Origin: Candidatus Bathyarchaeota archaeon
GTDB lineage: Archaea > Thermoproteota > Bathyarchaeia > TCS64
Length of the DNA stretch: 64,000 bases
Assembly (NCBI GenBank): GCA_963769425.1
Contig: CAVYLP010000006.1
Coordinates: 384,001-448,000, forward strand
Reading direction: 5' to 3'
Made by a program: the position numbers and the translations under genes. How positions within the stretch are numbered: the first letter of the stretch is position 1; each line of letters opens with the position of its first letter. This document shows, piece by piece, positions 6,033 through 58,131 of the stretch. The notes beneath the pieces are model-generated. The model was not told the origin of the DNA. It searched no databases and saw nothing but the letters and a program-made list of their open reading frames with translations.

Positions 6033-6366
6033 GAAGCCTATTCACCCGCGAGAGCGATTAAAGATTGCCCGCGCGCGGGAAAAGCAAGTACCCCGTAATT
6101 CCTTTAGGAATATTCATCCGAAATGGTTAAATGTGAGACTATAAGGCTCGATCTACTCCTAAAACCCCAAAACCTACCCATTTTTGATTACCGTCAATAC
6201 TAGTAAATGCTTGACCATCTCCTAATTATCGCCGCACTATTGTATGTATGGAGATAAGTATTATATACTAGGTGCTGACTGATGCCATACTCTATGGGTC
6301 GCGGAACCCGATTCCGATGATAATCGGAATATTCCGCAGAAGCAAGCTAGGAAAAGGGAAAAAACA

Positions 6367-7290: not shown

Positions 7291-7312
7291 AACCGAATTT
7301 TTCGGGCAGTTT

Positions 7313-29007: not shown

Positions 29008-30867
29008 ATGACGAGTGGATACGCGGGCAAGTTCCTAGACGTCGACCTCACGAAGGAGAAGATCAAGGAGATCAGCTTCGACGACAAGACCCTCCAGCAG
29101 TACTTCGGTGGGCGCGGGCTCGCGGCTAAGATACTCTGGGACAGGGTGGGCAAGAAGTGGGAGACACTCGACCCCTACGCCCCGGAGAGCCCGCTCATCG
29201 TCCTCACAGGCCCAATGACGGGCATCTACCCCGGCGGCAGGATATGCGTCTCGGGGAAGAGCCCGGTCAGCATGGGCACGGTAGGCTCAACGGCGGCGAC
29301 GGAGTTCGCGCACGAGCTACGATGCGCAGGATACGACGGCGTCATCTTCACGGGTAAGTCGGAGAAGCCCGTCTACCTCCTCGTGACGAACGACGGAGCA
29401 GAGATCAGACCAGCGGAGCACCTCTGGGGCACCGTCGGCGAGGAGACCATCAAGATTCTCAACAAAGAAGTCACGGAGGAGATGAGAAAGCGCAAGCCAA
29501 ACGTTGGTATCTGGCGCGAACCCGGCATGGTCTATATCGGCCCCGCTGGCGAGAACATGGTCCGCAATAGCGGCGTGATGAGCAAAATATGCCACGCAGC
29601 CGGGTACGGAGGCTACGGCGCCCTCATGGGCTCGAAGAAGCTCAAGGCAGTCGTCGCCAAGGGCAGGGGAAAGACCCCCGCCGCGGACGCCCCCGAGGCC
29701 GCGAAGTTGCTCTGGAAGAAGGCACACCAGATGCTCATAGCCAACAGCGAGATGCGCCGATACGGCACGGGCTACCTCGGATACACCGTCGGCGCCAGCA
29801 ACAGCAGCGAGCCCATCAGGAACTGGCAGACAGAGTGGCACAACGAGAAGAGCTACGCCGGCCCACGCTTCGAGGCGTACTGGGTCAAGAAGAAGTGGTC
29901 CGACTACAACTGCACCACGAACTGCATGAAGGTCAGCTGCATAAAGAACGGCAAGTGGAAGGGCGACATAACCGACCTCCCCGACTACGAGCTGCAGGCC
30001 TACTGCGGTACCAACATGGGCATCTTCGAACCCGTAGACAACATCCACATGAGCGCCCTAATCGACAACCTCGGCCACAGCGGAATCAACGGCCCCAACA
30101 CTATGGGCTTCGCCGCCGAACTCTACCAGAGGAAGATTCTCACAAAGAAGGACATAGGCTTCGAGCTCAACTGGGGTGACACCGATGCCTTTACGAAGCT
30201 CGCCTGGATGATGGCGAAGCGCGAGGGCATAGGCGACGTCCTAGCCGAGGGCACATACCGTGCCGCTATCAAGATCGCCGAGATGAAGGGGCTCCCGAAG
30301 GAGGAGCTGCTAAAGTACGTCGTACACGTCAAGGGCATCGAGATCGGCGCACACGGGACTCGCAGCGACCAGGACTACGTTCACGACGCCAGCTACGCGG
30401 GCAGCGTCCAGGGCGGGGACCACACATCCACCATCGGCGACGGCTACACTGACATGAGCGACGCCATCTTCGCCGACTGCGGCGTATTCTGCGACTTCTG
30501 CAGGACCACCCGCGAGCTGGAGTTCGACTTCGCCAAGGCCATCACGGGCTTCCCGATCACGGTCGAGAACTGGAGGAAGGAGACCGGCCCAAGGATAGTG
30601 ACGCTCCAGAAGGCTCTGCTGCTCCTCGGCGGACCTGACATGAAGTGGGAGCCTGTAAAGGACGACGACAACCCACCGAGGTTCTATGAGCCACTCCCCG
30701 AGGGGCCCTTCAAGGGCAAGACGACGGACAAGAAGCTCGTCGACCAGAAGCTGCAGGCTTACTTCGAGACGCTAGGCTGGGACGAGCGCGGGATCCCGAC
30801 GAAGGAGACGCTGAAAAGGCTGGACCTAGCCGACGTCGAGCCCTTCATGAAGAAGATGAGGGAATAG
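29008..30867 (+). CDS. Tungsten AOR-family oxidoreductase, WOR5-like paralogue 1
   Basis: 'GGRGLAAKIL', 'SGKSP', 'IGPAGEN', 'MGSKKLKA', DxxCxxxC cluster motif, 'LGWDERGIP'. Confidence 0.92.
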   Translation: MTSGYAGKFLDVDLTKEKIKEISFDDKTLQQYFGGRGLAAKILWDRVGKKWETLDPYAPESPLIVLTGPMTGIYPGGRICVSGKSPVSMGTVGSTAATEFAHELRCAGYDGVIFTGKSEKPVYLLVTNDGAEIRPAEHLWGTVGEETIKILNKEVTEEMRKRKPNVGIWREPGMVYIGPAGENMVRNSGVMSKICHAAGYGGYGALMGSKKLKAVVAKGRGKTPAADAPEAAKLLWKKAHQMLIANSEMRRYGTGYLGYTVGASNSSEPIRNWQTEWHNEKSYAGPRFEAYWVKKKWSDYNCTTNCMKVSCIKNGKWKGDITDLPDYELQAYCGTNMGIFEPVDNIHMSALIDNLGHSGINGPNTMGFAAELYQRKILTKKDIGFELNWGDTDAFTKLAWMMAKREGIGDVLAEGTYRAAIKIAEMKGLPKEELLKYVVHVKGIEIGAHGTRSDQDYVHDASYAGSVQGGDHTSTIGDGYTDMSDAIFADCGVFCDFCRTTRELEFDFAKAITGFPITVENWRKETGPRIVTLQKALLLLGGPDMKWEPVKDDDNPPRFYEPLPEGPFKGKTTDKKLVDQKLQAYFETLGWDERGIPTKETLKRLDLADVEPFMKKMRE

Positions 30868-30906
30868 TCCCTCCCCCTTATATTTCGTCATCCTACTTTT
30901 CCCCTG

Positions 30907-31845
30907 ATGGACCTTCTCAGCGGGTTCAGGGGCAGCCTTCTCGGTCTGGCTATAGGGGATTCACTCGGCGCTCCTGTCGAGTTCGAGCCGAGGGGCAGTT
31001 TCCCACCCATTACGGGTCTACGTGGCGGCGGGCCGTTTAACCTGAAGTCTGGGGACTGGACGGACGACACATCACTCGCCCTCTGCCTCGCCGAGAGCCT
31101 CATTGAGAAGAGGGGATTCGACCCCCACGACCAGGCCGAGAGGTATGTTAGATGGTGGAGGGGGGGCTACATGAGCTGCACGGGGAACTGCTTCGACATA
31201 GGGAACACAACGAAGGCGAGCCTACAGAGGTTCATGGACACCGGAAACCCCTACTCGGGGCCGACGAGTCCCGAGACGGGGAGCAACGGGTCCCTCATGA
31301 GGTTGGCGCCGGTGCCCCTGTTCTACCACGATGCGCCTGGGCGGGCTGTCGAGTACTCTGGGCTCAGCTCGAAGGTGACGCACGGAGCTGATGAGGCTGT
31401 AGACTCGTGCCGTTACCTCGGGGCACTCATCGTCGGGGCGCTAAGGGGCGAAGCGAAGGAGACCCTCATCTCAGGGAGATATGAACCAGAGAAGAGAATC
31501 TGGAAAAAACAACCGCTAACCGCTAAAGTCGACGCTGTCGCAGAGGGTTCTTTCCGGCGCTTAGAGCCACCGGAGATCAGAGCACAGGGATCGGCGGTGA
31601 AGACACTCGAGGCCGCACTCTGGGCGTTCGCGAAGGGGTCATCTTTCGAGGAGGGGTGTCTGCTCGCGGTCAATCTGGGTGACGACTCCGATACAGTGGG
31701 CGCAGTCTACGGACAGCTTGCGGGAGCCTACTATGGGATCGAGGAAATCCCCGCCAAGTGGCTTGAAGGACTCTCTTGCATAGAACTGATCGAATCGGCC
31801 GCCGAGAGGCTGTTCAAAGCATCACAGGCACGCATTTCGGTGTAA
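30907..31845 (+). CDS. ADP-ribosylglycohydrolase (DraG/ARH family)
   Basis: 'GDSLGAPVEF', 'WTDDT', 'NGSLMR', 'GDDSDTVGA'. Confidence 0.9.
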   Translation: MDLLSGFRGSLLGLAIGDSLGAPVEFEPRGSFPPITGLRGGGPFNLKSGDWTDDTSLALCLAESLIEKRGFDPHDQAERYVRWWRGGYMSCTGNCFDIGNTTKASLQRFMDTGNPYSGPTSPETGSNGSLMRLAPVPLFYHDAPGRAVEYSGLSSKVTHGADEAVDSCRYLGALIVGALRGEAKETLISGRYEPEKRIWKKQPLTAKVDAVAEGSFRRLEPPEIRAQGSAVKTLEAALWAFAKGSSFEEGCLLAVNLGDDSDTVGAVYGQLAGAYYGIEEIPAKWLEGLSCIELIESAAERLFKASQARISV

Positions 31846-31883
31846 TTAAGAGATTTTAACCCATTTCCGTATTTTCCTCCGAA

Positions 31884-31909
31884 TCGATATGTTTTAACAT
31901 GTATATCGG
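31884..31909. promoter_or_regulatory. Putative regulator box, copy 2
   Basis: TCGATATG-ttttaacatg-TATATCGG upstream of the second ferredoxin/oxidoreductase operon. Confidence 0.55.
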
Positions 31910-31982
31910 TTTCTTCGATGCGTCCAGAGAAGCCTTTTATCCCGATAATCGCCTAAAATCCATAGTTAATTCTGGTGAGACG

Positions 31983-32504
31983 ATGAGCAAACCCATCTGG
32001 ATAGCCCGAGACTACGCCGCCTGCAGCGGGTGCAAGCGGTGCGAGTTAGCGTGCAGCATGAAGTTCGAGGGATGGATGTTCCCCGAGGCCTCAATGGTCA
32101 GGGTCTTCATGCCCTTCCCCGGCGTCGAGGTACCACACCTCTGCACGCAGTGCGCCGACTACCCCTGCGTCAAATCCTGCGCCCCGAAGGCACTTAGTGT
32201 CGACCCCGTCACAACCGCCGTCATCGTAGACAAAGAGAAGTGCATCAGCTGCGGCAGCTGCATAAAGGCGTGCCCCGGCCACGTGCCGTACCTCCACCCG
32301 GAGACGAACAAGGTGGTCATATGCAACCTATGCAACGGGGACCCCGAGTGCGTGAAGGTCTGCGTCGAGGCGGGATACAACGCCCTAACCGTCGTCCCGG
32401 AGGGACCGAACGTTAACAAGAAGCTCTTCAGCCGGCCCCCCATCGAGGTGGCGAAGGAGCTCGCGGTATTTTTCTTCGGCGAAAAGGGTGAAGAGGTAAT
32501 CTAA
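31983..32504 (+). CDS. Polyferredoxin small subunit (WOR5-S-like) 2
   Basis: Close paralogue of 28485..29006; ATG at 31983 after GGTGAG. Confidence 0.9.
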   Translation: MSKPIWIARDYAACSGCKRCELACSMKFEGWMFPEASMVRVFMPFPGVEVPHLCTQCADYPCVKSCAPKALSVDPVTTAVIVDKEKCISCGSCIKACPGHVPYLHPETNKVVICNLCNGDPECVKVCVEAGYNALTVVPEGPNVNKKLFSRPPIEVAKELAVFFFGEKGEEVI

Positions 32505-32505
32505 G

Positions 32506-34374
32506 ATGCCCGGAGGATACGCTGGAAAGTACCTCGACATCGACCTCACCAAGAGGAAGATCAAGGACACGACCTTCGACGACGAGACGCTTGAGATGTT
32601 CTTCGGCGGCCGCGGCCTCGCCGCGAAGATACTCTGGGACCGCCTCGGGAAGAAGTGGGGGGACATAGACTCACTCGGCCCCGAGAACCTCTTCCTCGCC
32701 CTCACAGGGCCCATGACGGCCATCTACCCCGGCGCTAGGATAATGTGCTCCGGCAAGAGCCCACTCAGCAACGGCACAGTGGGATCAACCGCCTCAACCG
32801 AGTTCGCCTCCGAGATACGGATGGCGGGATACGACGGCGTCATAGTCACCGGGAAGGCGGACGAGCCCGTCTACATCCAAGTAACGAACGATGGCGGGGA
32901 GATCAAGAGCGCCAAGCAACTCTGGGGAACCGTTGGCGAAGACACGATAAAGATCCTCAACAGGGAGGTCACAGCGGACCTCACCAAGAAGAAGCCAAAC
33001 ATCGGACTCTGGAAGGAGCCCGGCATCATCTACACCGGCCCAGCCGGGGAGAACATGGTGCGCAACGCCGCGGTGATGACGAAGATCTGCCACGCCTGCG
33101 GCTACGGTGGCTACGGTGCCCTGATGGGGTCGAAGAACCTCAAGGCCATAGTCGCGAAGGGCAGGGGGAGGCTCCCACCGGCCAACGCCCCAGAGGCGAC
33201 CAAGCTCCTCTGGAGGAGGACCCACGAGTATCTCATCAACCAGGGCAGGATGCGCCGCTGGGGCACAGGCTACGGCGGCTACGCCACTGGCGCCGACACC
33301 AGCTCCGAGCCCGTGAAGAACTGGCAGGAGGAGTGGCACGACGACAAGAACATGGGCGGCCCCAAGTTCGAGAACAAGTTCTGGGTCAAGAAGAAGTGGA
33401 GCGACTTCAACTGCACAACCAACTGCATGAAGGTCAGCTGCATAAAGTCTGGGAGATGGAAGGGCGACATCACCGACATGCCAGACTACGAGCTTGAGGC
33501 GTACTGCGGGACCAACCTCGGCATCTTCGATGCAGCAGATAACATCCACATCAGTACCCTGATCGATAAGCTGGGACACAGCGGCATCAACGGCCCCAAC
33601 ACGATGGGTTTCGCAGCCGAGCTCTACCAGAGGGGAATCCTCACCGAGAAAGACTTCGGGTTTAGGCCCATCTGGGGCGACGCCGAGTCTATGGACAAGC
33701 TCGCCTGGCTCATCGCGAAGCGGGAGAAGATCGGGGACATCCTCGCAGAGGGCACCTACCGAGCCGCGATAAAGATCGCGAAGATGAAGAAGATGGAGCC
33801 GGAGGAGCTGCTCAAGTTCGCGGTGCACGTCAAGGGCATCGAGATTGGCGCACACGGCACCCGGAGCGACGCCGACTACACGCATGACATCTCCTACGCC
33901 GCAAGCGTACAGGGCGGGGACCACACCTCCACGACCACAGACGGATTCACCGACATGAGCGGCGCAGTCTTCACCGACTCCGCCGTCTTCTGCAACTTCT
34001 GCTACTTCGCCGTCCCACAGGAGCTCGTCTTCGACTACGCGAAGGCGATAACAGGCTTCCCGATCTCACAAGGCAGCTGGAGGAGCGTCACAGGGCCCAG
34101 GATAGTCACCCTGCAGAAGGTTCTGCTGCTGCTCGGCGGCCCCGACGTGACATGGGAGCCGGTCAAGGACGACGACAACCCGCCGAGGTTCTACGAGCCG
34201 CTCCCGACGGGCCCGTTCAAGGGGAAGACGACCGACCACAAGAAGGTCGACGAGAAGCTACAGACCTACTTCACCACCCTCGGATGGGACAAGATGGGCA
34301 TCCCTACGAAGGAGACGCTGAAGAAGCTGGGCCTGAGCGACTGCGAGACGGCCATGAAGAAGCTGAGGGAGTGA
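32506..34374 (+). CDS. Tungsten AOR-family oxidoreductase, WOR5-like paralogue 2
   Basis: Same motifs as paralogue 1; 622 aa. Confidence 0.92.
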   Translation: MPGGYAGKYLDIDLTKRKIKDTTFDDETLEMFFGGRGLAAKILWDRLGKKWGDIDSLGPENLFLALTGPMTAIYPGARIMCSGKSPLSNGTVGSTASTEFASEIRMAGYDGVIVTGKADEPVYIQVTNDGGEIKSAKQLWGTVGEDTIKILNREVTADLTKKKPNIGLWKEPGIIYTGPAGENMVRNAAVMTKICHACGYGGYGALMGSKNLKAIVAKGRGRLPPANAPEATKLLWRRTHEYLINQGRMRRWGTGYGGYATGADTSSEPVKNWQEEWHDDKNMGGPKFENKFWVKKKWSDFNCTTNCMKVSCIKSGRWKGDITDMPDYELEAYCGTNLGIFDAADNIHISTLIDKLGHSGINGPNTMGFAAELYQRGILTEKDFGFRPIWGDAESMDKLAWLIAKREKIGDILAEGTYRAAIKIAKMKKMEPEELLKFAVHVKGIEIGAHGTRSDADYTHDISYAASVQGGDHTSTTTDGFTDMSGAVFTDSAVFCNFCYFAVPQELVFDYAKAITGFPISQGSWRSVTGPRIVTLQKVLLLLGGPDVTWEPVKDDDNPPRFYEPLPTGPFKGKTTDHKKVDEKLQTYFTTLGWDKMGIPTKETLKKLGLSDCETAMKKLRE

Positions 34375-34415
34375 CCTTTTCCTTCTTTTTAGTGGAAAAT
34401 TAGGAGAATGAGAAA

Positions 34416-36284
34416 ATGCCTGGTGGATACGCGGGGAAGTTTCTGGACGTCGACCTCACCAAGAGGAAGATCAAGGACACGACCTTCGACGACGAGACAC
34501 TTGAGATGTTCTTCGGTGGCCGCGGCCTCGCCGCGAAGATACTGTGGGACAGGATAGGTAAGAAATGGAGCAAGGTCGATGCTCTCGGGCCCGATAACCT
34601 CTTAATCGCCCTAACGGGCCCAATGACAGGCATCTACCCCGGCGGCAGGATATGCGTCTCGGGGAAGAGTCCCATGAGCAACGGCACCGTGGGGTCGACC
34701 GCGTCCACCGAGTTCGCCCACGAGCTGAGGTGCGCCGGCTACGACGGCGTCATCGCCTCGGGGAAGGCCGACGAGCCCGTCTACATCCAGGTCACGAACA
34801 ACGGGGGTGAGATCAAGCCCGCGAAGCACCTATGGGGGAAGGACGGGGAGCAGACACTCATCGCCCTTAACAAGGAGGTTGACGCCGTCCTCGCCAAGTC
34901 GAAGCCAAACATCGGCCTCTGGCGCGAACCCGGAATGATCTACATAGGTCCGGCTGGGGAAAACCTCGTTCGAAACGCCGCGGTTATGACAAAGCTCTGC
35001 CATGCCTGCGGCTACGGCGGATACGGCTCCGTAATGGGAAGCAAGAACCTTAAGGCCATAGTCGCCAAGGGGCGCGGCAGGATGCCAGCCCCAGACGCCC
35101 CCGAGTCCGCGAAGCTGATGTGGAAGAGAACACACGAGCACCTCATCGCCCGGAAGCAGTTCAGGAGATGGGGCACGGGCTTCGGTGGTTTCTCCTTCGG
35201 CAACGCCACGAGCAGCGAGCCCATAAGGAACTGGCAGGAGGAGTGGCATGACGAGAAGAGCATCGGCGGCCCGATGTTCGAGACTAAGTATTGGGTCAAG
35301 AAGAAGTGGACCGACTTCAACTGCACAACGAACTGCATGAAGGTCAGCTGCATAAAGTCAGGCCCCTGGAAGGGGGACATCACCGACATGCCCGACTACG
35401 AGCTCGAGGCCCACTGTGGAACCAACTTCGGCATCTTCAACCCTGAGGAGATAATCCACCTCAGCACACTCTGCGACCTACTCGGCCACAGCGGGATCAA
35501 CGGGATGAGCGCTATGAGCTACGCGGCGGAGCTCTACCAGCGGGGCATCCTCACCGAGGAGGACATAGGCTTCAAGCTCAAGTGGGGTGATGCCAAGGCC
35601 TTCGACCGCCTGATGCGAATGGTCGCAAACCGCGAGGGCATCGGCGACGTGATAGCCGAGGGAACCTACAGGGCCGCCATCAAGATAGCAGAGATGAAGG
35701 GGATGAAACCCGAGGAACTGCTCAAGTACGCAGTGGTTGTAAAGGGGATAGAGGTCGGGGCGCACGGCACGAGAAGCGACGCCGACTTTGCCCACGACAT
35801 AGGCTACGCCGCCAGCGTACAGGGTGGGGATCACTCGAGCCTCGTCTACGACGGGTACACCGATATGTCGGGGAGCATCTTCGCCGACTGCGGCGTCTTC
35901 TGCAGCTTCGCCTACAACGGCGTCCCTCAGGAGCTTGTCTTCGATTTCGCCAAGGCCATCACGGGGTTCCCGATAGACATCGAGAGCTGGAGGCGTGTCA
36001 CCGGCCCGAGGATCATCACATTACAGAAGGTGCTGCTGCTCCTCGGGGGACCGGACGTGACGTGGGAACCTATAAAGGATGATGACAACCCGCCCCGCTT
36101 CTACGAGCCACTCCCCGGAGGCCCATTTAAGGGCAAAACCACCGACAAACAGAAAGTCGACAAGAGGCTAAAGACCTACTTCGAAACCCTCGGATGGGAC
36201 GCTAGGGGCATCCCGAAGACGGAGACTCTCGCGAGGATGGGGCTCAACGACTGCGAGCTCTCGATGGCGAAGCTTAGGCGCTGA
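34416..36284 (+). CDS. Tungsten AOR-family oxidoreductase, WOR5-like paralogue 3
   Basis: Same motifs; 622 aa. Confidence 0.92.
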   Translation: MPGGYAGKFLDVDLTKRKIKDTTFDDETLEMFFGGRGLAAKILWDRIGKKWSKVDALGPDNLLIALTGPMTGIYPGGRICVSGKSPMSNGTVGSTASTEFAHELRCAGYDGVIASGKADEPVYIQVTNNGGEIKPAKHLWGKDGEQTLIALNKEVDAVLAKSKPNIGLWREPGMIYIGPAGENLVRNAAVMTKLCHACGYGGYGSVMGSKNLKAIVAKGRGRMPAPDAPESAKLMWKRTHEHLIARKQFRRWGTGFGGFSFGNATSSEPIRNWQEEWHDEKSIGGPMFETKYWVKKKWTDFNCTTNCMKVSCIKSGPWKGDITDMPDYELEAHCGTNFGIFNPEEIIHLSTLCDLLGHSGINGMSAMSYAAELYQRGILTEEDIGFKLKWGDAKAFDRLMRMVANREGIGDVIAEGTYRAAIKIAEMKGMKPEELLKYAVVVKGIEVGAHGTRSDADFAHDIGYAASVQGGDHSSLVYDGYTDMSGSIFADCGVFCSFAYNGVPQELVFDFAKAITGFPIDIESWRRVTGPRIITLQKVLLLLGGPDVTWEPIKDDDNPPRFYEPLPGGPFKGKTTDKQKVDKRLKTYFETLGWDARGIPKTETLARMGLNDCELSMAKLRR

Positions 36285-36330
36285 CCTTTTTCATCAAGCT
36301 TTATCTCCCCCCGTAATGCGGTTGGTTACG

Positions 36331-36606
36331 ATGAAGGTCACAGTACGCGTCTTCGGGGATGTCTCACAGGTCATCGGCAGGAGACACGAGGTTGAGCTCC
36401 AGGAGGGCGCGACTATAACGACGATCGCCGCGAGGGTCGGCGAGAAGACGGGGCAGCGACAGGGCTACCTCGGCGACTTCCACGTCGGGGGCAAGGACCT
36501 AGCCATACTCCTCAACGGTAAGAGCATAGATTTGCTCAACGGCGTCCAGACAAAGCTCAAAGACGGCGACGAGGTCGTCGTCATGCAGCCGACAGCCGGC
36601 GGCTAG
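36331..36606 (+). CDS. MoaD/ThiS/SAMP ubiquitin-like sulfur carrier
   Basis: Beta-grasp pattern, 'LKDGDEV', C-terminal GG. Confidence 0.88.
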   Translation: MKVTVRVFGDVSQVIGRRHEVELQEGATITTIAARVGEKTGQRQGYLGDFHVGGKDLAILLNGKSIDLLNGVQTKLKDGDEVVVMQPTAGG

Positions 36607-37085
36607 AGCCTTATTAATACTTCTGCCTCAATCTCCACGGGTAGGCCGAAGGGCAGCTCAGCCATTCCCACCGCGGACCGCGCGTGTTTACCCGCCTCCT
36701 TCCCCCAGACCTCGATAATAAGATCGGAGAACCCGTTGATGACTGCGGGCTGATTTTTAAATCCGGGCGCAGAGTTCACCATCCCGAGGACCTTGAGCCA
36801 CTTCTCGACCCTATCCAAGTCGCCGAGCTCCTGCTTGAGGCTAGCTAGGATAGCCAGCCCCGTGAGGCGCGCCGCATCGTAGGCCTGGTCCTGCGTCACT
36901 TCGCTCCCAACCTTCCCGTACACCTGAGAGAGAGTACCGTCGGGATTCGTCGGACCGTGCCCCGAGACGTATGCCCTGTTCTCGTGCAACCTGACAAAGG
37001 GGAAAGTCTGGCGGAATGAGGCTGGGACCTTCGTAGGTTCCGGGAGAGTTATCCCAAGTTCAGATAGACGCGCTTCGATCCTCAT
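36603..37085 (-). CDS. RidA/YjgF family protein
   Basis: 'YVSGHGP', 'NGFSDL', 'HARSAVG', 'VEIE'; probable ATG 37085. Confidence 0.88.
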   Translation of the reverse strand: MRIEARLSELGITLPEPTKVPASFRQTFPFVRLHENRAYVSGHGPTNPDGTLSQVYGKVGSEVTQDQAYDAARLTGLAILASLKQELGDLDRVEKWLKVLGMVNSAPGFKNQPAVINGFSDLIIEVWGKEAGKHARSAVGMAELPFGLPVEIEAEVLIRL

Positions 37086-37176
37086 GTAGTTCGATACTGG
37101 TTCCCATCGCACCCCATTTAAAATCACCTGATAAGAACACGAGCCCCGAATGTCAATCTTTTTCCCACACCACAAA

Positions 37177-37202
37177 TCGATATGCAACATGAAACATCTC
37201 GA
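37177..37202. promoter_or_regulatory. Putative regulator box, copy 3
   Basis: TCGATATG-caacatgaaa-CATCTCGA upstream of the fourth oxidoreductase gene. Confidence 0.55.
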
Positions 37203-37243
37203 AGGCTATACCCTTATCAGTCTTCACAATTCTCTGGTATCAG

Positions 37244-39091
37244 GTGATTCAATCCTTGAAGGGCTGGACCGGAAACCTCCTCAGGGTGGACCTCACGAAG
37301 GGGAAAGCCGTCAGGACTGGGTACTCTGAAGAACTCGCCGTGAAGTTCATCGGCGGACGCGGCCTCGCCGTGAAGCTACTCTGGGACGAGTTGAAGCCGG
37401 GGACCGACCCCCTCGGCCCTGACAACATCCTAATCTTCGCCGGAGGCCTCTACGCGGGGCTACCCACGGTCAACAGCGGGAAGATGGTAGTCGCGGCTAA
37501 GAGCCCCCTCACGGGCGGCTACGGCGACGGAAACCTCGGGACGATGGCCTCCCCCAATATGAGGAAGGCCGGCCTCGATGGCATAGTCCTAACCGGCAAA
37601 GCGGCGAAACCAACCTACCTCTGGATAAACGACGACGAAATAGAGTTCAAGAGCGCCTCAGACCTCTGGGGCTTGGATAGCTACGAGACTGAGAGGAAGC
37701 TGAAGAAGGAACACGGTGCCGATACGGGTGTCCTCACTATAGGGCAGAGTGGCGAGAACCTCAGTCGCTTCTCGACTGTCGTCTCTCAGGAGGGGCGAGC
37801 AGGTGGCCGCCCCGGCATGGGCGCCGTAATGGGAAGCAAGAATCTCAAGGCGGTCATTATCAAGGGCACGGGTGAGATACCCGTCGCCGATAAGGAGACC
37901 CTCCAGAAGCTGGGGAGGGAGGGCTTCCAGGACCTCCTCAAGAGGCCCAACTACAAGCACTGGAAGGCACAGGGCACGATGGCCACCGTCGAGTGGTGCC
38001 AGGCGGCCTCGACACTCCCCACCCGTAACTTCAGGGAGGGCGTCTTCGACCACAGCAAGGAGATCGATGGCAACACGATGGAAGCATCCACTGTCAAGCA
38101 GCGCGGCTGCCCCAACTGTAACATGATCTGCGGGAACGTCATCCTCGACACAAACGGTGAGGAGTCGGAGCTTGACTATGAGAACGTCGTTATGCTGGGC
38201 AGCAACATCGGCGTCGGGGACCTCAAGCAGGTGGGACGCCTCAACAGGATGTGCGACATGCTCGGCCTAGACACTATCAGCGCAGGCAGTGCCCTCGGCT
38301 TCGCGATGGAGTGCAGCGAGAAGAAGCTCGTCGAGGGCCTCGACCTCAAGTGGGGCGACTTCGAGGGCTCCCAGAGGCTCCTCGAGGACATGGCCTATAT
38401 GCGTGGACACGGCGCCCTATTCGGAATGGGCACGAAGGTTGCAGCCGAGAAGATCGGCCACGACTCCATTGACTACGCGATGCAGGTGAAGGGCCTAGAG
38501 TGCAGCGCCTACGATTGCCACCTGTGTCCGGGGATGAGCCTCAGTTTCGGCACAAGCCCCATCGGTGCTCACCACAAGGACGCCTGGGTAATCAGCTGGG
38601 AGATCAGCAGCGGCACACGCGAGGAATACGGTCCAGAAAAAGCGGACAAGGTCATCGAGTTCCAGCGCATCCGCGGCGGCATGTTCGAATGCCTCGTAGC
38701 CTGCAGGTTCCCTTGGATCGAGCTCGGCTTCGAGGTCGAGCACTACCCCAAGTACATGGAGGCGGCGACCGGCCTCAAGTGGACCCTCGATGACATGTGG
38801 GCTCTCGGTGACAGGGTCTACGCCCTGATCCGTGCCTTCTGGGTAAGGGAATTTGAGGGCAAATGGGATAGGAAGATGGATTACCCGCCGGAGCGCTGGT
38901 TCAGGGAACCCCTCACTGAGGGCCCCCTCGCGGGGAAGAAGCTGGACAGGGCGAAGTACGACGAGTTGCTCTCCGCCTACTATGAGAAGAGGAGATGGGA
39001 TGACAGAGGCATCCCTACGAGATCCATGATGGTTAGTCTTGGACTCGAGAAGGAAGCTGAGGGACTAAATAAGATAGTAAGTCTCAATTAA
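37244..39091 (+). CDS. Tungsten aldehyde:ferredoxin oxidoreductase (FOR/AOR-like)
   Basis: 'KSPLTGGYGDGNLG', 'GRPGMGAVMGSKNLKA', CPNCNMIC, 'DYEN', 'GAHHKDAW'. Confidence 0.92.
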   Translation: MIQSLKGWTGNLLRVDLTKGKAVRTGYSEELAVKFIGGRGLAVKLLWDELKPGTDPLGPDNILIFAGGLYAGLPTVNSGKMVVAAKSPLTGGYGDGNLGTMASPNMRKAGLDGIVLTGKAAKPTYLWINDDEIEFKSASDLWGLDSYETERKLKKEHGADTGVLTIGQSGENLSRFSTVVSQEGRAGGRPGMGAVMGSKNLKAVIIKGTGEIPVADKETLQKLGREGFQDLLKRPNYKHWKAQGTMATVEWCQAASTLPTRNFREGVFDHSKEIDGNTMEASTVKQRGCPNCNMICGNVILDTNGEESELDYENVVMLGSNIGVGDLKQVGRLNRMCDMLGLDTISAGSALGFAMECSEKKLVEGLDLKWGDFEGSQRLLEDMAYMRGHGALFGMGTKVAAEKIGHDSIDYAMQVKGLECSAYDCHLCPGMSLSFGTSPIGAHHKDAWVISWEISSGTREEYGPEKADKVIEFQRIRGGMFECLVACRFPWIELGFEVEHYPKYMEAATGLKWTLDDMWALGDRVYALIRAFWVREFEGKWDRKMDYPPERWFREPLTEGPLAGKKLDRAKYDELLSAYYEKRRWDDRGIPTRSMMVSLGLEKEAEGLNKIVSLN

Positions 39092-39299
39092 CCAAAACCT
39101 CCCCCCGCGAGTTTCGGATGTAAGTTTTTCTGAGTAATATTGTTTATCGTTACATTGCTTGAAAAATCACATATATTATGCTATTTATAGTAAAAAAGAC
39201 CTTTTTGTCTCATCTTTATAGTATTTATTTACTGTTTTCTAAATTAAATCTTATATAGATTAAGAGCCTGATATTTTTTGCCTAAATGGAGGCTAAAGA

Positions 39300-40091
39300 T
39301 TGGCTGTACCGTTTGTAATGGCTACTAGATTCATCGGCTTGGTTATGCTGATAGTTATAATGGGAGCAACGGTTTACTTCACACGGAGGGCACAAAGGGG
39401 GAAGATACAGGCCATCCGACGCATCCCTGGTATCGACGCCATGGATGAGGCGATTGGCCGAGCAGTCGAGATGGGGCGACCGGTCGTCGCCTCTCATGGG
39501 ATAGCTACTCTGAGAGACGCTGCAACCGGTCCCCAGACCATCGCGGGACTCAGCGTCCTTAGTTACATCGCTAAGAAAACTGCTGAAGTTGGTGCAATCC
39601 TGATAGTGCCGGTGAGACAGCCCGAAGTCTGGCCCATAGCCGCGGATATAGTGGAGACGGCCTACAAAATAGCAGGCAAGGCAGAAGATTACAAAGTCGA
39701 GAACATCCGATACCTATCAAATGACCAGTTCGCTTACGCTTCAAACTACATGGGTCTATTGATGAGGGAGAAGCCCGGCGCCAACATCATGATAGGCGCT
39801 TACTGGGCTGAGTCAATGCAGTTAGCGGAGACAGGTTCACGCGTGGGTGCTATGCAGATCTCCGGCACAGCTCAGACCTCACAGATCCCGTTCTTCCTAG
39901 TTGCAACTGACTACTGTCTGATAGGGGAGGAGGTCTTCTCCGCAGGTGCCTACCTAACGAATGATGGCCCAATGATCGGGAGCCTAGCTGGGACCGACGT
40001 GGGGCGCATCATCGCAGTAGCGCTCGGCATACTCGGAGCACTAATGATGACGGCTGGAAGTCAGGCCCTGATTCAGTTCTTCGGATGGTGA
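39300..40091 (+). CDS. DUF6754-like membrane-anchored protein
   Basis: TM helix, 'IRRIPGIDAMDEAIGRAVEMGRP', 'GAYWAES', 'QIPFF...DYCLIGEE'; recognised from memory. Confidence 0.65.
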   Translation: MAVPFVMATRFIGLVMLIVIMGATVYFTRRAQRGKIQAIRRIPGIDAMDEAIGRAVEMGRPVVASHGIATLRDAATGPQTIAGLSVLSYIAKKTAEVGAILIVPVRQPEVWPIAADIVETAYKIAGKAEDYKVENIRYLSNDQFAYASNYMGLLMREKPGANIMIGAYWAESMQLAETGSRVGAMQISGTAQTSQIPFFLVATDYCLIGEEVFSAGAYLTNDGPMIGSLAGTDVGRIIAVALGILGALMMTAGSQALIQFFGW

Positions 40092-40096
40092 TATGA

Positions 40097-40768
40097 ATGT
40101 CAAATGTCCTTAGAAGAATAGAGATCCCAATAGCGATAACAATCGTGGCAGTCCTCATCCAAGTGATACCTTACTACCTAGATGCTGGAACGACAATAAA
40201 CGCAACCCTGGGTGGGGCGGCGGACTTCATGCAGAGGTGGATGCTTATAGTAATCGCGCTTGCTACGCTCGTTGGAGTCGTTTCTGTTTTCCAGGTTCAC
40301 GGGAAGAATCTACAAAAACGAGGAAAGGACTGGTACTTCAGCATCATCGTCCTAGTTGTAATGGTCATTATGATCGTCGCTGGTCTCCCGATACAGGAGA
40401 TCACACTGGGCCCGACAAATACAGTGTATCTGTTCTTCTTCAACAACTTCTACACACCACTGAGCGGGACGATGTATGCTATCATCGCCTTCTTCATTAC
40501 ATCAGCAGCATTCAGGGCCTTCCGAGCGAGAAATCTTGAGGCAACTCTGGTACTCCTAGCTGGGATCCTGATGGTTGTATCAAATGCTCCTCTTTTTACA
40601 GCGTCGTGGGGGGGCTTCAAAACCATCGGTGATTGGATTATGAATGTACCCAACATGGCTACAATGAGGGCTGTTACGATTGGAATCGCCCTCGGCACGA
40701 TAGCTCTCGCAGTTAGGACCCTGATGGGTATTGAGAGGGGCTATCTCAGAGGAGGAACTGAAGGATAA
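40097..40768 (+). CDS. Conserved hypothetical integral membrane protein
   Basis: About 6 TM segments; 'SAAFRAFRARN', 'RAVTIG', 'GIER'. Confidence 0.8.
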   Translation: MSNVLRRIEIPIAITIVAVLIQVIPYYLDAGTTINATLGGAADFMQRWMLIVIALATLVGVVSVFQVHGKNLQKRGKDWYFSIIVLVVMVIMIVAGLPIQEITLGPTNTVYLFFFNNFYTPLSGTMYAIIAFFITSAAFRAFRARNLEATLVLLAGILMVVSNAPLFTASWGGFKTIGDWIMNVPNMATMRAVTIGIALGTIALAVRTLMGIERGYLRGGTEG

Positions 40769-41613
40769 TGTCCATCCTGAAGTTCATTACAGATCTGGAC
40801 CGAAGATGGGTCTATCTTCTCTGCTGGATATTCGTCCTATATCCTCTGATCTTCCCTCTAGGGCTACCGATACCTATAGGTAAACAGTCTACGCAATGGT
40901 TCGCAGCTGTTGACGCCGTAAAGCCGGGTAGCACCGTAGTTTTATCACCTATGTATGACCCATCGGCCATACCAGAGTTATTCCCCATGACTATCGCCAC
41001 CTTCCGACACCTACTGACGAAAGATGTGAAAATCGTCGTCGTCACTTTCTGGGCCGCAGGAGCACTGGTGTTCGACCAGGTACTTACCCAGGTCAACCCA
41101 CTGGACTATAATAAGGTGTATGGAACCGACTGGATCGACCTAGGATATATCCCTGGGACCGAAACCGCTATGGCATCGTTCTCGAGGGACCCTGCCGGGA
41201 CGGCTTCTACAGACTTCCTTAAGCATCAACCAACAGCGAGCTACCCCATAATGCAAAACATCAAAACCGCCGCTGATTTCTCCCTGATCATCAGTATCGA
41301 GACCGGAACGCCAGGCGCTGGTGAATGGCTGCGCCAAACACAGGCACCCTACGGCACACCACTCATCGTGGGCTGCGTAGGAGTGTCAGCGCCAGGCATG
41401 ATGCCCTTCGTCCAAGCAGGACAGATTAGCGCACTTCTGCCTGGTCTCACGGCTAGCGCCGAGTATGAGAAGCTCCTTGGCAAGCCTGGACTCGCCATCG
41501 CCGGAGTAGATGCGGTATCAACTTCACACCTTCTGATTGTTCTACTGATAGTGCTTGGCAACATAGCATACTTCGCATCGAGGGGCCCCAAGGGCTCCAA
41601 GGGAGGTAAATGA
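40768..41613 (+). CDS. Conserved hypothetical membrane protein (alpha/beta domain between TM anchors)
   Basis: 'DRRWVY', 'ELFPM', 'YGTDWIDLGYIPG', 'AEYE'; stop/start overlap with the previous gene. Confidence 0.8.
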   Translation: MSILKFITDLDRRWVYLLCWIFVLYPLIFPLGLPIPIGKQSTQWFAAVDAVKPGSTVVLSPMYDPSAIPELFPMTIATFRHLLTKDVKIVVVTFWAAGALVFDQVLTQVNPLDYNKVYGTDWIDLGYIPGTETAMASFSRDPAGTASTDFLKHQPTASYPIMQNIKTAADFSLIISIETGTPGAGEWLRQTQAPYGTPLIVGCVGVSAPGMMPFVQAGQISALLPGLTASAEYEKLLGKPGLAIAGVDAVSTSHLLIVLLIVLGNIAYFASRGPKGSKGGK

Positions 41614-41614
41614 C

Positions 41615-42349
41615 ATGGTTGACTTAATCGCAGTCTGGGCTGGGGTCTTCCTAACCCTCGCGATCTACAGCATCCTATACAGGGAGAGCCCCTGGTACAG
41701 GATAGCGGAATCCGTATACCTCGGCGTCGCTGTCGGCTACGGTGTCTCGCTTGACCTAGTCTACGTTCGGAACCAGTGGGAGACCGGAGGATGGTCATCC
41801 GGACCGATGCTGATTGGTTTCGCACTGGCTGCGATCCTCGGAATCCTCTGGTACCTAAGGTTTGCTAAATCATACTTCTACCTATACAGGTGGCCCCTTG
41901 CCGTCGTCGTTGGAACCGGATTAGGCCTAACGCTAAGAACCGTAGTTTTCACACAGTTCACGACGCAGATCCTAGCCCAGGCGAAGCTCAACCTTTACTT
42001 ACCCAGCGATCCACTGACTTGGTTCAACAATATACTGATGTTCATAATGGTGCCTTCTGTACTCCTCTACTTCTGGTTCACGGGAGTGGGTGTGAGGCAG
42101 GGTACTACGATGAAGATCATCGACCAGTTGGCCAGGTACATCATGATGGTGGGTTTCGGCGCATCCTTCGGCTACACCATCCTGACCAGATACGCCCTCC
42201 TAATCGGCAGGGCGCAGTACCTACTCGGCATAGTACCAAACCCGCCAGAGAACTTCACCGCATCCATCGTGATAGCAGCGGTGATCCTCATATCACTGTT
42301 CGGCTACGACTTCATGAAGAGAGGGAAAAGCACAGTAACACCTGCATAA
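41615..42349 (+). CDS. Conserved hypothetical integral membrane protein
   Basis: About 7 TM segments; 'YRESPWYRIAESVYLG', 'MVGFGASFG'; followed by a T8 run. Confidence 0.8.
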   Translation: MVDLIAVWAGVFLTLAIYSILYRESPWYRIAESVYLGVAVGYGVSLDLVYVRNQWETGGWSSGPMLIGFALAAILGILWYLRFAKSYFYLYRWPLAVVVGTGLGLTLRTVVFTQFTTQILAQAKLNLYLPSDPLTWFNNILMFIMVPSVLLYFWFTGVGVRQGTTMKIIDQLARYIMMVGFGASFGYTILTRYALLIGRAQYLLGIVPNPPENFTASIVIAAVILISLFGYDFMKRGKSTVTPA

Positions 42350-42374
42350 CCATTCCTCTTTTTTTTAAAAAGAT

Positions 42375-42791
42375 CTATTTCTTTGAGGTTATCGTGTACT
42401 TCACACCGAGTGGCTTGAGCACCTCATCGATCTTCTGAATGAGGGAGTTCAACTGGTCTACGGTTGGCTCCCTATACCATTCGAAGAAGAAGTCGTAGTC
42501 ACCCAGATGCTCACCGGACTTACTCACCAGCTTCCCGCACCTCTCTTCAGAGATGTTTTCCTTCAATGGAACAAAGTACTCCATCGCCTCAGACGATCCG
42601 GAGGTCGTCGACGTACTTGGGTCGGGTTCATTGTCAACCGAGAAGTATGTCCGGATTAGGGGGTCCATGATGCAGACCTCATTGAAGTCTATGGCCATCT
42701 TCTCGAGAGCCTTAATCGCATCATATACGGGTGGTCCGTAGATTTTTATATAACTCTTCAACACTTTCACCAAATTTATGATTGGAATCAC
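42375..42791 (-). CDS. Hypothetical protein
   Basis: 138-aa ORF filling the gap between genes; true start probably GTG/TTG near 42765. Confidence 0.65.
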   Translation of the reverse strand: MIPIINLVKVLKSYIKIYGPPVYDAIKALEKMAIDFNEVCIMDPLIRTYFSVDNEPDPSTSTTSGSSEAMEYFVPLKENISEERCGKLVSKSGEHLGDYDFFFEWYREPTVDQLNSLIQKIDEVLKPLGVKYTITSKK

Positions 42792-42867: not shown

Positions 42868-44052
42868 GTGAACCAAATGCTAGCCATCAAGGGTGGGAAG
42901 ATTCTAACCATCACGAAGGGTATAATCGACAACGGCATCGTCCTCGTAGAGAATGGGAAGATCAAGGCCGTCGGCGTGGACGTGAAGATTCCGGCCGACG
43001 CCAAGGTGATTAATGCTAACCGGAAGGTTGTGATGCCCGGCCTCGTCGAGGCCCACTGCCACATCGGCATCACGGAGGAGACCGCCGGCTGGTCTGGGAG
43101 CGACGATAACGAAGCGATGGAGCCCATCACGCCCCAGATGAGGGCGATAGATGGCATAAAGGCGAATGCCGACGAGAAGGGGCTCGAGGCGGCGCTCATG
43201 ACGGGGATTACGACGGCACAGATTCTCCCCGGGAGCGCGAACGTGATCGGCGGAACGGGCGTCGTCGTGAAGACCGCCCCGAAGGTCGTCGTGGACGAAA
43301 TGATCGTCAAGAATCCCTCCGGTATGAAGGTGGCCTTTGGTGAGAACCCCCGGCGGGTCTACGGCGTGGAGTTGAAGAAGATACCGAGCACCCGCATGGG
43401 GGAGGCGGCCCTACTCAGGGAGTGGCTTAACCGGGCCCTACTCTACTCAGAGAAGAAGAAAGCCGCCATAGCACAGAAGGACCCCATAAAGATGCCTGAC
43501 GCCGACCCGAGGCTCGAGGCGCTGCAACCAGTCATCAACAAAGAGATTCCCCTAAGAGTGCACGCCCACAGGGCCGACGACGTCGCCACAGCGGTGAGAA
43601 TATGCGAGGAGTTCGGCCTCGAGATGAGCTGGGAGCACGCCACGGAGGGGCACAGGGTCGCCAAGTGGCTCGCCGAGAAGAAGATCTCAGCCGTCTGGGG
43701 ACCCAGCCTCGTAGCGAGGAGGAAGTGGGAGATGAGGGAGCTGAGTTTCGACACCCCGAGGATCCTCCACGAGGCCAAGGTGCACTTCGCCATCCAGACG
43801 GACGCGGTGGGGAGTACGATTGCCTTCCTCCCGATATGCGCCGGACTCGCCTGCCGTGACGGCCTGCCCTACGAGGAGGCGCTCAAGTCCATTACGATCA
43901 ACTCGGCCGAGATAATTGGCGTCGGGGACAGGGTGGGGAGCCTCGAGAAGGGCAAGGACGCGGACATACGGATACTCACCGGTGACCCCCTTGAGCTGAA
44001 GACGAAGGTGGAGAAGGTTATAATCAACGGCGAGCTCGCTTGGAGCCGTTAG
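42868..44052 (+). CDS. Amidohydrolase family protein
   Basis: 'MPGLVEAHCHIG', 'KVAFGENP', 'HAHRADD', 'GSLEKGKDAD'. Confidence 0.9.
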   Translation: MNQMLAIKGGKILTITKGIIDNGIVLVENGKIKAVGVDVKIPADAKVINANRKVVMPGLVEAHCHIGITEETAGWSGSDDNEAMEPITPQMRAIDGIKANADEKGLEAALMTGITTAQILPGSANVIGGTGVVVKTAPKVVVDEMIVKNPSGMKVAFGENPRRVYGVELKKIPSTRMGEAALLREWLNRALLYSEKKKAAIAQKDPIKMPDADPRLEALQPVINKEIPLRVHAHRADDVATAVRICEEFGLEMSWEHATEGHRVAKWLAEKKISAVWGPSLVARRKWEMRELSFDTPRILHEAKVHFAIQTDAVGSTIAFLPICAGLACRDGLPYEEALKSITINSAEIIGVGDRVGSLEKGKDADIRILTGDPLELKTKVEKVIINGELAWSR

Positions 44053-54909: not shown

Positions 54910-55968
54910 TTAGGGTTTGAGGTAGGCCTTCAGATACTTCACCATGGGCTTGCCGAGGGCCTTCTCGACGGGCTCGTATATCTCAGGGTACCGGTTGCCG
55001 TCGCCGACCTTGATCTTCTCCTTAGGGACGTTGACGAGGTAGACCTCGTCCCCCTTCTTGAGGGCGGCGCTTGTGACGGGGTTCCCCTCGCCGTCGAAGG
55101 TGGTCATCAGGTCGGGGAACGTCGCGAGACGTTTCCCCCCGTTCTCAAGGGTCATGTACTCGTTGACGTAGCTTAGCTCCCACGTCTCCTCCCCCTTGAT
55201 GGTCATGACGCCGACGTCGAAGCCTCCCCTCGCCTCAGTTGTCATCTCGACTATCTTGCCGGTTTCGATGAGTTCGCCGCCGAGGAACTTGGCCGCCGCC
55301 TTGACAGCTGGTTCACCCTTCTTCGCTTTGAGGTAGGCCTTGCCGAGGTCGATGGCCTGCTGGATGGCCCCAGGGGCGCCGTGCTCGAGGCACCATTCGA
55401 CCGGTATCGGGTCCCTAGCCATGGCTATGAGGGCCTTGCAGTCGCCCGCCATGAATCGGATCTGATTGCTCGTGCGCTGGAGGGTGCCCCAGCAGATCAT
55501 CTCGGCGCCTTCGGTGGCACCCGCCTTGACGGAGTTGTAGTCGAGGCGGTGTATGCCCATGCTGCCCATCATCGCAGTGGGGTGAGCTCTACCGTCGCCC
55601 GGGGTATCCACGACGGGCAGCCCAAGGGCCGCGGCGGGTATCCAGCCGCCGAAGCTGTTCTGGCCACCGTTCTCAGCGGCGATGACGCCGTCGAACTCTA
55701 CGCCCGCCTCCCAGAGCATCTGTACAGCGCGTATGAAGTGGCGCGCCTTCGTCTCTCCTTTCTGGGTGGGGGCACCGAGGGCAGCGACGGTGATCACATT
55801 CCACTCGGGTGGCGTCTCCTCGGGCGACCAGAGCTCGACGCCTCCGAGCTCCATTGCGAGCATCCCAGCAGCTCGCCCCTCCGAGGGCCAGCCACCACCG
55901 CCCCCACCGAGGATAGTCCCACCGATTGTCAGCGCCTCAACGTCCTCAACCGTGATCTTTCTTGGCAT
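54910..55968 (-). CDS. DUF917 family protein
   Basis: 'GGTILGGGGGG', 'GAP', 'ENGGQNS', 'DGRAHP', 'NEYM', 'FPDL'; own ATG at 55968. Confidence 0.8.
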   Translation of the reverse strand: MPRKITVEDVEALTIGGTILGGGGGGWPSEGRAAGMLAMELGGVELWSPEETPPEWNVITVAALGAPTQKGETKARHFIRAVQMLWEAGVEFDGVIAAENGGQNSFGGWIPAAALGLPVVDTPGDGRAHPTAMMGSMGIHRLDYNSVKAGATEGAEMICWGTLQRTSNQIRFMAGDCKALIAMARDPIPVEWCLEHGAPGAIQQAIDLGKAYLKAKKGEPAVKAAAKFLGGELIETGKIVEMTTEARGGFDVGVMTIKGEETWELSYVNEYMTLENGGKRLATFPDLMTTFDGEGNPVTSAALKKGDEVYLVNVPKEKIKVGDGNRYPEIYEPVEKALGKPMVKYLKAYLKP

Positions 55969-56030
55969 GATTATCCAGCTAGAAAAAGCGGGGGACCAGA
56001 TATAATACTTGAACCCCGGGGAAAGTGTGG

Positions 56031-58131
<2,101 letters not shown>

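Follow-up and report, generated by a model that had tools for sequence, protein, structure and literature searches.

What does the four-gene membrane cassette at positions 39092–42370 of a Candidatus Bathyarchaeota archaeon contig do, and how might it be powered? The contig (CAVYLP010000006.1, assembly GCA_963769425.1) was analysed over a stretch of 64,000 nucleotides, positions 384,001 to 448,000, here called the window, in which the genes g1–g4 run in one direction as a member of the DUF6754 family of gene clusters. The g1 protein matches DUF6754 (PF20539) end to end (E-value 2.3e-80; 269.9 bits where the cut-off is 27; positions 7–256 of the 257 in the profile), and gene order and sizes are as in other members, with nothing to set the window's copy apart; the family has no described function. 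The four genes are a conserved unit that co-occurs almost exactly with a pair of genes for a GlmL/MutL-like protein and a partner of ~390 residues, and the module is read here, at roughly even odds, as a substrate-specific nutrient importer for amino acids or small peptides that works with this pair. The features concerned are:

39092–39299, + strand: spacer of 208 bp at 29.3% GC that presumably serves the cassette as promoter and leader; GGAGG at 39289–39293
39300–40091, + strand: g1, DUF6754 subunit, 263 residues, TTG start, GGAGG 7 nt upstream
40097–40768, + strand: g2, polytopic membrane subunit, 223 residues, about six transmembrane (TM) helices
40768–41613, + strand: g3, second bitopic subunit, 281 residues
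41615–42349, + strand: g4, polytopic membrane subunit, 244 residues, about six TM helices
42359–42366, + strand: run of eight T residues (T8), 9 nt past the g4 stop codon, candidate archaeal oligo-T terminator
42868–44052, + strand: amidohydrolase neighbour, 394 residues, PF01979/PF07969, not a subunit

The first question is whether these genes belong together. Gaps of 5, −1 and 1 bp separate them, and cassettes of the same organisation recur in other lineages: of 80 loci retrieved for their similarity to the window's g1 (set 1), 77 have the order g1–g2–g3–g4, the others being two at contig ends and one with no g4 match; of 81 retrieved for their similarity to a Clostridia g3 (set 2), 70 have it. 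Taxa represented include Bathyarchaeia, Methanomethylicia, Culexarchaeia, Bacillota, Melainabacteria, Ignavibacteria and Wallbacteria in set 1, and Eisenbacteria, Cloacimonadota, Zixibacteria, WOR-3, Marinimicrobia and Chloroflexota in set 2; the closest public locus is that of a Bathyarchaeia metagenome-assembled genome (MAG) with a g1 95% identical to the window's, and most relatives are also Bathyarchaeia MAGs. A profile search with g3 returned 5421 cluster representatives (50% identity) at E ≤ 0.001. Distribution is patchy, with DUF6754 found in 4 of the 201 genomes sampled from the archaeon's own phylum and in 26 of 301 genomes of a Bacillota-side sample; positive genomes carry up to 14 matches, and tandem cassettes occur (up to three at locus L080).

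In the genome of the window, DUF6754 is matched at four places, each followed by homologues of g2, g3 and g4 in order; the four cassettes are 25–42% identical to each other, and profiles of g1–g4 find exactly four copies of each and no distant paralogues beyond them. An 80-residue frame (G000:C6:989005–989244, + strand) matches the g3 profile (E-value 1.2e-4) and the g4 profile (E-value 0.066) weakly and may be the remnant of a fifth cassette. A quick g1 tree with an arbitrary root, used only to place the window's copy, puts that copy inside a Bathyarchaeia clade; in the same tree a Bathyarchaeia subclade (L045, L046, L058 and L063) is nested in the mostly bacterial half, which hints at transfer of the cassette between domains.

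The second question is what travels with the cassette. Directly upstream of the copy on contig C3 of this genome are genes for a 603-residue PF13941 ‘MutL’ protein and a 398-residue protein of no family, and the genome has two PF13941 genes in all, each followed by a ~390-residue partner (C3:69175–72115 and C6:932992–935970), with about 5 kb between the second pair and the second C6 cassette downstream of it, so that two of the four cassettes are adjoined. The order, GlmL-like protein first and partner second, is constant. In the 201 genomes of the own-phylum sample, PF13941 matches with E-values below 1e-100 are confined to three (G000, G080 and G125), and the partner profile selects exactly the same three; these are three of the four DUF6754-positive genomes, the fourth (G093) having only an 82-residue fragment at a contig end. 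Among the 301 Bacillota-side genomes, 24 have both cassette and partner, two the cassette only (one of them by a weak partial match), one the partner only and 274 neither. Pairs in genomes lacking the cassette hence number 0 of 197 and 1 of 275, respectively, and PF13941 is present in five of five further cassette-bearing genomes. Kinship among genomes inflates these counts, but two distant groups show the same pattern. Within the fetched flanks, the pair is found at 12 of the 80 set-1 loci and 33 of the 81 set-2 loci, mostly as a row of pair–g1–g2–g3–g4. The ratio of cassettes to pairs is 4:2 in this genome, 7:1 in G080, 8:1 in G205 and about 12:5 in G203, a variation compatible with the sharing of one pair by several cassettes.

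GlmL/MutL is the accessory protein of glutamate mutase, and Or-4 belongs to ornithine degradation. The companion resembles these families (PF13941, NF040745, NF040744, TIGR01319) in matching PF13941, over positions 1–450 with an E-value of about 1e-117, and differs from them in falling below the NCBIfam cut-offs (211 against 475 for GlmL, 209 against 600 for Or-4, 159 against 204 for the family model), in carrying about 150 extra C-terminal residues and in always being accompanied by the ~390-residue partner. A role as mutase helper was rejected, given these scores and the lack of any GlmE match in the genome; Lys-AminoMut_A was likewise not matched in the genome, in a search whose control was positive nowhere. 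Invariant glycine-rich loops (D14-x-G-S-T-T-x-K21, D162-G-G and G291-G-A-T-T), which we take to be the phosphate-binding loops of actin-fold ATPases, run through the GlmL-like proteins. The partner, 46–53% identical between archaea and Bacillota, gives weak barrel-sandwich hits only and belongs to no known family. Profile searches of the PDB with both proteins returned nothing meaningful, a literature search on GlmL/MutL with actin found nothing relevant, and a search of main texts found no mention of DUF6754, PF20539, PF13941 or TIGR01319. Near the C3 cassette, its pair and an M29-like peptidase gene, two overlapping DUF4438 paralogues were noted (L007, 785–2555).

How the four subunits might be arranged is indicated by hydropathy and structure prediction. 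Six hydropathy membrane segments are found in each of g2 and g4 and two in each of g1 and g3 (terminal in g3), and AlphaFold2 models of g1 (predicted local distance difference test (pLDDT) score 90.5, predicted template modelling (pTM) score 0.83) and g3 (pLDDT 91.6, pTM 0.85) are built alike, a Rossmann-like alpha/beta domain of six to seven strands being flanked by one TM helix at the N-terminus and a long one at the C-terminus. An earlier, sequence-only reading of the window had anticipated the DUF6754 likeness, the tight coupling and recurrence of the genes, the two polytopic proteins and the two alpha/beta domains between TM anchors, all of which agree with these results. It had also taken LIGEE (g1, position 207) and SAEYE (g3, position 230) for related C-terminal patterns; both motifs are present, but kinship of g1 and g3, and with it an A-B-A′-B′ duplication, is not supported by sequence, as profile–profile comparison among g1–g4 finds no relation (g1 against g3, at most 1.2% probability). 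Residues E50, R54, E57, G166, D204, Y205, E210, E211 and D233 are invariant in g1, and E32, F153 and G182 in g4; the C-terminal TM helix of g3 carries conserved D248, S251 and H254 and is followed by a basic C-terminal tail. Buried polar residues are conserved in g3 (D248/H254), g2 (R207) and g4 (E32).

The orientation of g1 can be approached through its longer relatives, a search for which returned 230 proteins of 497–2000 residues. Of 13 scanned, 12 have 240–740 extra residues ahead of the DUF6754 part, with fn3 domains in four, a PQQ_2/BamB-type propeller in one and an RGI-lyase domain in one; a signal-peptide-like hydrophobic start was seen in 7 of 11 long forms examined, and one long bacterial form has PKD domains beyond its C-terminal TM helix. 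Archaeal forms have no exported extra domains. Since exported domains lie beyond both TM helices and a cluster of arginine and lysine residues follows the first TM helix of g1, the ends of the g1 core would be outside and its Rossmann-like domain is inferred to be cytoplasmic. The Rossmann-like domain of g3 is probably outside the cell, to judge by its basic N-terminus and C-terminal tail.

No characterised system is matched, by sequence for g1–g4 or by fold for g1 and g3, in keeping with the earlier reading. Pfam and NCBIfam yield nothing at or above cut-off for g2, g3 or g4, and profile searches of PDB sequences give nothing for g1, g2 or g4 and chance-level rows only for g3. Scanned member by member against Pfam, 28 of 83 g2 proteins show weak sub-threshold TMD0_ABC hits (best E-value 1.2e-5), with nothing consistent for g3 or g4. 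Foldseek found no PDB match at E ≤ 0.001 for the g1 or g3 model, and in the ESM Atlas two g3 homologues fall into unnamed clusters. In VIA-align the g1 list is flat, from a top Z of 10.3 (6zdz_A, root-mean-square deviation (rmsd) 2.8, 136 residues aligned) to 8.7 at rank 50; the g3 list is a similarly flat series of Rossmann-fold proteins (top Z 10.5, 1kjn_B, rmsd 3.4, 140 aligned). As modelled, the fold class of g1 and g3 is ordinary, with no specific family nameable.

A further comparison is that of g1 with the RCK/KTN (TrkA-N) domains of potassium channels and transporters, which share a Rossmann-like domain on the cytoplasmic side of a membrane system and account for 12 of the best 50 rows (Z 8.8–9.6; 1id1_B, rmsd 5.7 over 135 residues; 6i8v_A, rmsd 2.9 over 113). 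These rows are mixed with dehydrogenases and glycosyltransferases in the flat list (Z 10.3–8.7) and show no sequence relation, and g1 differs in having helices that anchor it at both ends and no nucleotide-binding motif, in a motif scan limited to Walker A.

The favoured reading assembles these parts into a machine. The polytopic g2 and g4 would form the path through the membrane, the Rossmann-like domain of g3 would serve outside as a binding or gating domain, and that of g1 would receive, on the cytoplasmic side, the GlmL-like ATPase-like protein and its partner, which would supply either the energy of ATP or a coupled chemical step. One pair would serve several cassettes, after the manner of the energising modules of energy-coupling factor (ECF) transporters; the four diverged copies in this genome would handle different amino-acid, peptide or amide compounds, and the window's copy would feed the adjacent dipeptidase-like amidohydrolase.

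Among known importers, a parallel is offered by the binding-protein-dependent ATP-binding cassette (ABC) systems, which likewise combine two polytopic subunits, an outward alpha/beta subunit and a cytoplasmic ATPase-like component, and likewise occur in many paralogous copies beside catabolic genes. The differences are these: the cassette has no ABC ATPase (no ABC_tran match; the genome's 47 ABC_tran matches are elsewhere), g2 and g4 match no permease family at cut-off in Pfam or NCBIfam, the putative energiser belongs to the actin fold instead of the P-loop class, g1 has no ABC counterpart, and the g3 model is a single Rossmann-like domain, unlike the two lobes of solute-binding proteins, single lobes of ABC sugar-binding proteins making up 2 of the best 50 tied rows for g3 (Z 8.2, rmsd 3.5–3.6, 124 aligned). 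ECF transporters resemble the module in having few energising pairs per many cassettes (1:7, 1:8 and 2:4 here) and an energiser sometimes encoded apart, sharing of the energiser across cassettes being itself an inference; no sequence or fold relation between the two was found, and the specific part of the cassette is four proteins where ECF systems have one S component. Compared by sequence only, g2 and g4 have no Pfam match to the tripartite ATP-independent periplasmic (DctM/DctQ), tripartite tricarboxylate (TctA/TctB) or major facilitator transporters. That the module represents a new class of primary active importer, with interchangeable four-protein modules, each for a single amino acid, peptide or amide compound, and a shared actin-fold ATPase in place of the P-loop, and that it is the main peptide and amino-acid route in Bathyarchaeia and many uncultured anaerobic bacterial phyla, is a tentative and rather doubtful extension.

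Is the pair an energiser at all? The sequence-only reading had proposed ATP-independent uptake of peptides or amino acids. Its uptake component fits the evidence set out below, but the absence of ATP involvement is probably wrong, because the cassette and the genes for an actin-fold ATPase-like protein and its partner occur in nearly the same genomes, often in one operon. A self-sufficient secondary or ion-coupled transporter, with the pair as a metabolic or regulatory companion such as an enzyme acting on the imported compounds, would suit the absence of an ATPase gene from the cassette and of Walker A from its four proteins, in a pattern scan that, in line with the earlier reading, found no CxxC either. 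It would also suit the separate AT-rich upstream region of each cassette and the lack of a pair in the flanks of two of the four cassettes here and 68 of the 80 set-1 loci; the buried residues D248/H254, R207 and E32 could couple ions, and the Pfam text places relatives of GlmL in a hydantoinase-like branch of actin-fold proteins, a placement compatible with an enzyme of amide metabolism. Such a transporter is nevertheless unlikely, given the near-exact co-occurrence of pair and cassette in two distant samples, the six-gene row common across many phyla, and the single pair per seven or eight cassettes with different neighbours, which speaks for a generic role of the pair and not that of one substrate-specific enzyme.

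Part of the evidence for uptake comes from outside the window. In two related Clostridia MAGs, a full-length lysine riboswitch lies directly upstream of g1 on the same strand. Riboswitches of the lysine class regulate the synthesis of lysine and its transporters, and one placed before an operon of membrane proteins only points to lysine traffic. Of nine lysine riboswitches in five cassette-rich genomes, one stands at a g1 (G438:C32; 92.4 bits over the full model, against an Rfam gathering score of 30 bits), roughly 230–280 nt upstream of the gene; in the other MAG, the 92%-identical relative L100 has a 99-bit riboswitch followed by a 9-bp GC hairpin and U run (terminator-like), a Shine–Dalgarno sequence and intact g1–g4. 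The window's g1 and g3 are, of the four paralogues, the closest to the riboswitch cassette (41.8% and 38.0%). No lysine riboswitch was found in 33 bacterial cassette loci, ten relatives at 57–64%, five other Bacillota loci or 40 metagenome loci. Flavin mononucleotide (FMN) riboswitches at L066 and L067 were set aside as belonging to a divergent ECF riboflavin gene and not to the cassette.

The neighbours of the cassettes point the same way. An amide-bond hydrolase adjoins each of the four cassettes of this genome, namely the window's amidohydrolase, an M14 carboxypeptidase, a creatininase-family enzyme and the M29-like peptidase, whose gene overlaps the g4 stop of its cassette; by the author's tally, an amide hydrolase lies at most two genes away in 30 of the 80 set-1 loci, mostly of the window's Bathyarchaeia clade. 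In the 91%-complete genome, the peptide-uptake families SBP_bac_5, OPT, CstA and PTR2 were not found, the corresponding controls being positive in 11, 2, 7 and 6 of 14 reference genomes; a literature search on peptide transporters of Bathyarchaeota found nothing relevant. An uptake role fits the riboswitch, the hydrolase neighbours and the missing classical peptide transporters together, and the many diverged copies per genome give the module the look of a transporter family.

Another possibility is a membrane machine that does not import solutes but senses or transduces a signal, exports, or handles envelope or surface polymers, the pair being its motor on the cytoplasmic side. In its favour, the large exported fn3, PKD, beta-propeller and RGI-lyase-like domains of long bacterial g1 proteins are of a kind usual in surface proteins and in proteins that bind polymers, g1 resembles the RCK/KTN regulatory domains of channels (12 of the best 50 rows, without standing out), and lysine may turn the operon either off or on through the riboswitch. 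Against this stand the absence of the exported extras from archaeal forms, the lysine traffic to which a riboswitch on a membrane operon points, and the presence of up to 14 diverged copies per genome beside varied catabolic enzymes, as in a nutrient-transporter family; a machine of this sort is considered improbable.

Several observations weigh against an importer that works with the pair. No pair is encoded within the window and neither pair of the genome is near the window's cassette, while at the C3 locus, where the pair does adjoin, 244 bp of AT-rich spacer lie between it and g1. Co-occurrence could also mean a shared pathway, not physical coupling. The lysine riboswitch is present in 2 of 90 screened cassette loci, both of one lineage, and at one of them (G438:C32) g1 is split over two frames; export or catabolism would also be compatible with the riboswitch link. 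The count of hydrolase neighbours is inflated by shared descent, and such neighbours are sparse at bacterial loci. The g3 fold, as modelled, is a generic Rossmann-like domain, and its outward orientation has charge bias as its one basis. Both g2 and g4 may yet be distantly linked to a known transporter fold.

The remaining alternative, group translocation or vectorial catalysis, in which the actin-fold protein would modify the substrate on entry and the unit would be a membrane-bound enzyme–transporter, draws on the invariant glycine-rich loops of the GlmL-like protein, on the kinases, ATP-dependent hydantoinases and oxoprolinases that the actin-fold (ASKHA) superfamily includes, and on the recurrence of cyclic-amide enzymes nearby (creatininase, S-Me-THD/DUF917, amidohydrolases), but is very improbable, as no catalytic residue or substrate is identified, the partner is of no known family and a single chemistry sits poorly with one pair per many cassettes whose neighbours differ.

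The setting of the window's copy is consistent with amino-acid fermentation. As the sequence-only reading had it, the cassette lies between an aldehyde:ferredoxin oxidoreductase (AFOR) gene and the amidohydrolase gene, in what can fairly be called an amino-acid fermentation region because of its AFORs, ADP-forming acyl-CoA synthetase, 2-oxoacid oxidoreductase and ornithine cyclodeaminase. Upstream are four AFOR genes, a ferredoxin, a ThiS-like gene and a RidA-like gene; beyond the cassette and amidohydrolase are an Mrr/NERD-like gene, a polysaccharide-deacetylase-family gene, CorA and the ADP-forming acyl-CoA synthetase, together with an HpcH aldolase, the ornithine cyclodeaminase and the 2-oxoacid oxidoreductase. 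The amidohydrolase, whose nearest solved chain is the uncharacterised 3OOQ (E-value 9e-97), followed by the L-Arg carboxypeptidase Cc2672 and prolidases, is likely to be a consumer of the imported substrate; a homologue lies at most two genes downstream of the cassette in 15 Bathyarchaeia loci (author's tally).

Composition distinguishes the cassette from this setting. Within the window, 200-nt segments below 36% GC occur only at the spacer 39092–39299, and GC content at third codon positions (GC3) is 0.54–0.68 in g1–g4 against 0.80–0.83 in the flanking AFOR and amidohydrolase genes, so that the upstream region of about 200 bp, the T8 ending and the AT-richer codon use reported earlier are all borne out. 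The three paralogous cassettes of the genome also have low GC3 and a spacer of 194–405 bp at 22–36% GC ahead of g1. An Rfam search of 38900–39400, which covers the spacer, matched no family. A scan for sigma-70 promoters and hairpin terminators gave hits fewer than, or no more than, shuffled sequence and was discarded as inapplicable to archaea. Contigs from sequencing runs labelled RNA were also compared with the locus: in the nanopore run X9, six short contigs span 39394–40272 at 90–99% likeness; run X7 has no contigs matching the cassette; two runs labelled RNA, probably DNA, have contigs over most of g1–g4; and 39092–39311 is covered by no contig of these runs. As contigs cannot demonstrate transcription, no inference on expression was drawn.

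Further features of the window and of related loci were recorded in passing. The four AFOR paralogues stand in a row at 29008–39091 (+ strand; starts 29008, 32506, 34416 and 37244), interspersed with genes for a ferredoxin, a ThiS/MoaD-like protein and an ADP-ribosylglycohydrolase. A 138-residue open reading frame (ORF) of no family separates g4 from the amidohydrolase at 42375–42791 (− strand); a 131-residue ORF occupies the equivalent position in the 95%-identical locus L008, and more distant orthologous loci have none. At 54910–57867 (− strand), a 985-residue ORF unites 2-oxoacid:ferredoxin oxidoreductase domains (POR_N, PFOR_II, TPP_enzyme_C) with a C-terminal S-Me-THD/DUF917, a hydantoinase-like domain pair, a fusion that is unusual. 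As separate genes, S-Me-THD proteins are encoded next to cassettes in L038 and L040–L042. In the same four loci, from Methanomethylicia/Culexarchaeia-type MAGs, genes for a carboxyltransferase and a biotin carrier immediately precede the cassette on its own strand (about 5800–7900); the carboxyltransferase is split and oxaloacetate-decarboxylase-like (HMGL-like plus PYC_OADA, about 470 residues) and the biotin carrier is separate. A link to decarboxylase pumps on the strength of these genes was dropped as lineage-specific synteny. In four Fermentithermobacillaceae loci (L050, L056, L059 and L060), ribonucleotide reductase genes with an intein and a LAGLIDADG endonuclease lie upstream of the cassette.

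If the favoured reading is true, the module would be a transport machine built of parts unlike those of any studied transporter, driven by an energiser whose fold is not known to power the uptake of solutes. The module is common, being present in Bathyarchaeia, Methanomethylicia, Bacillota, Cloacimonadota, Eisenbacteria, Zixibacteria, WOR-3 and others. Bathyarchaeia are read as fermenters of proteins and peptides, and an importer of this kind would fill a gap in their metabolic models, the present genome showing none of the four classical peptide-uptake families; the relative controlled by a lysine riboswitch gives a concrete first candidate substrate.

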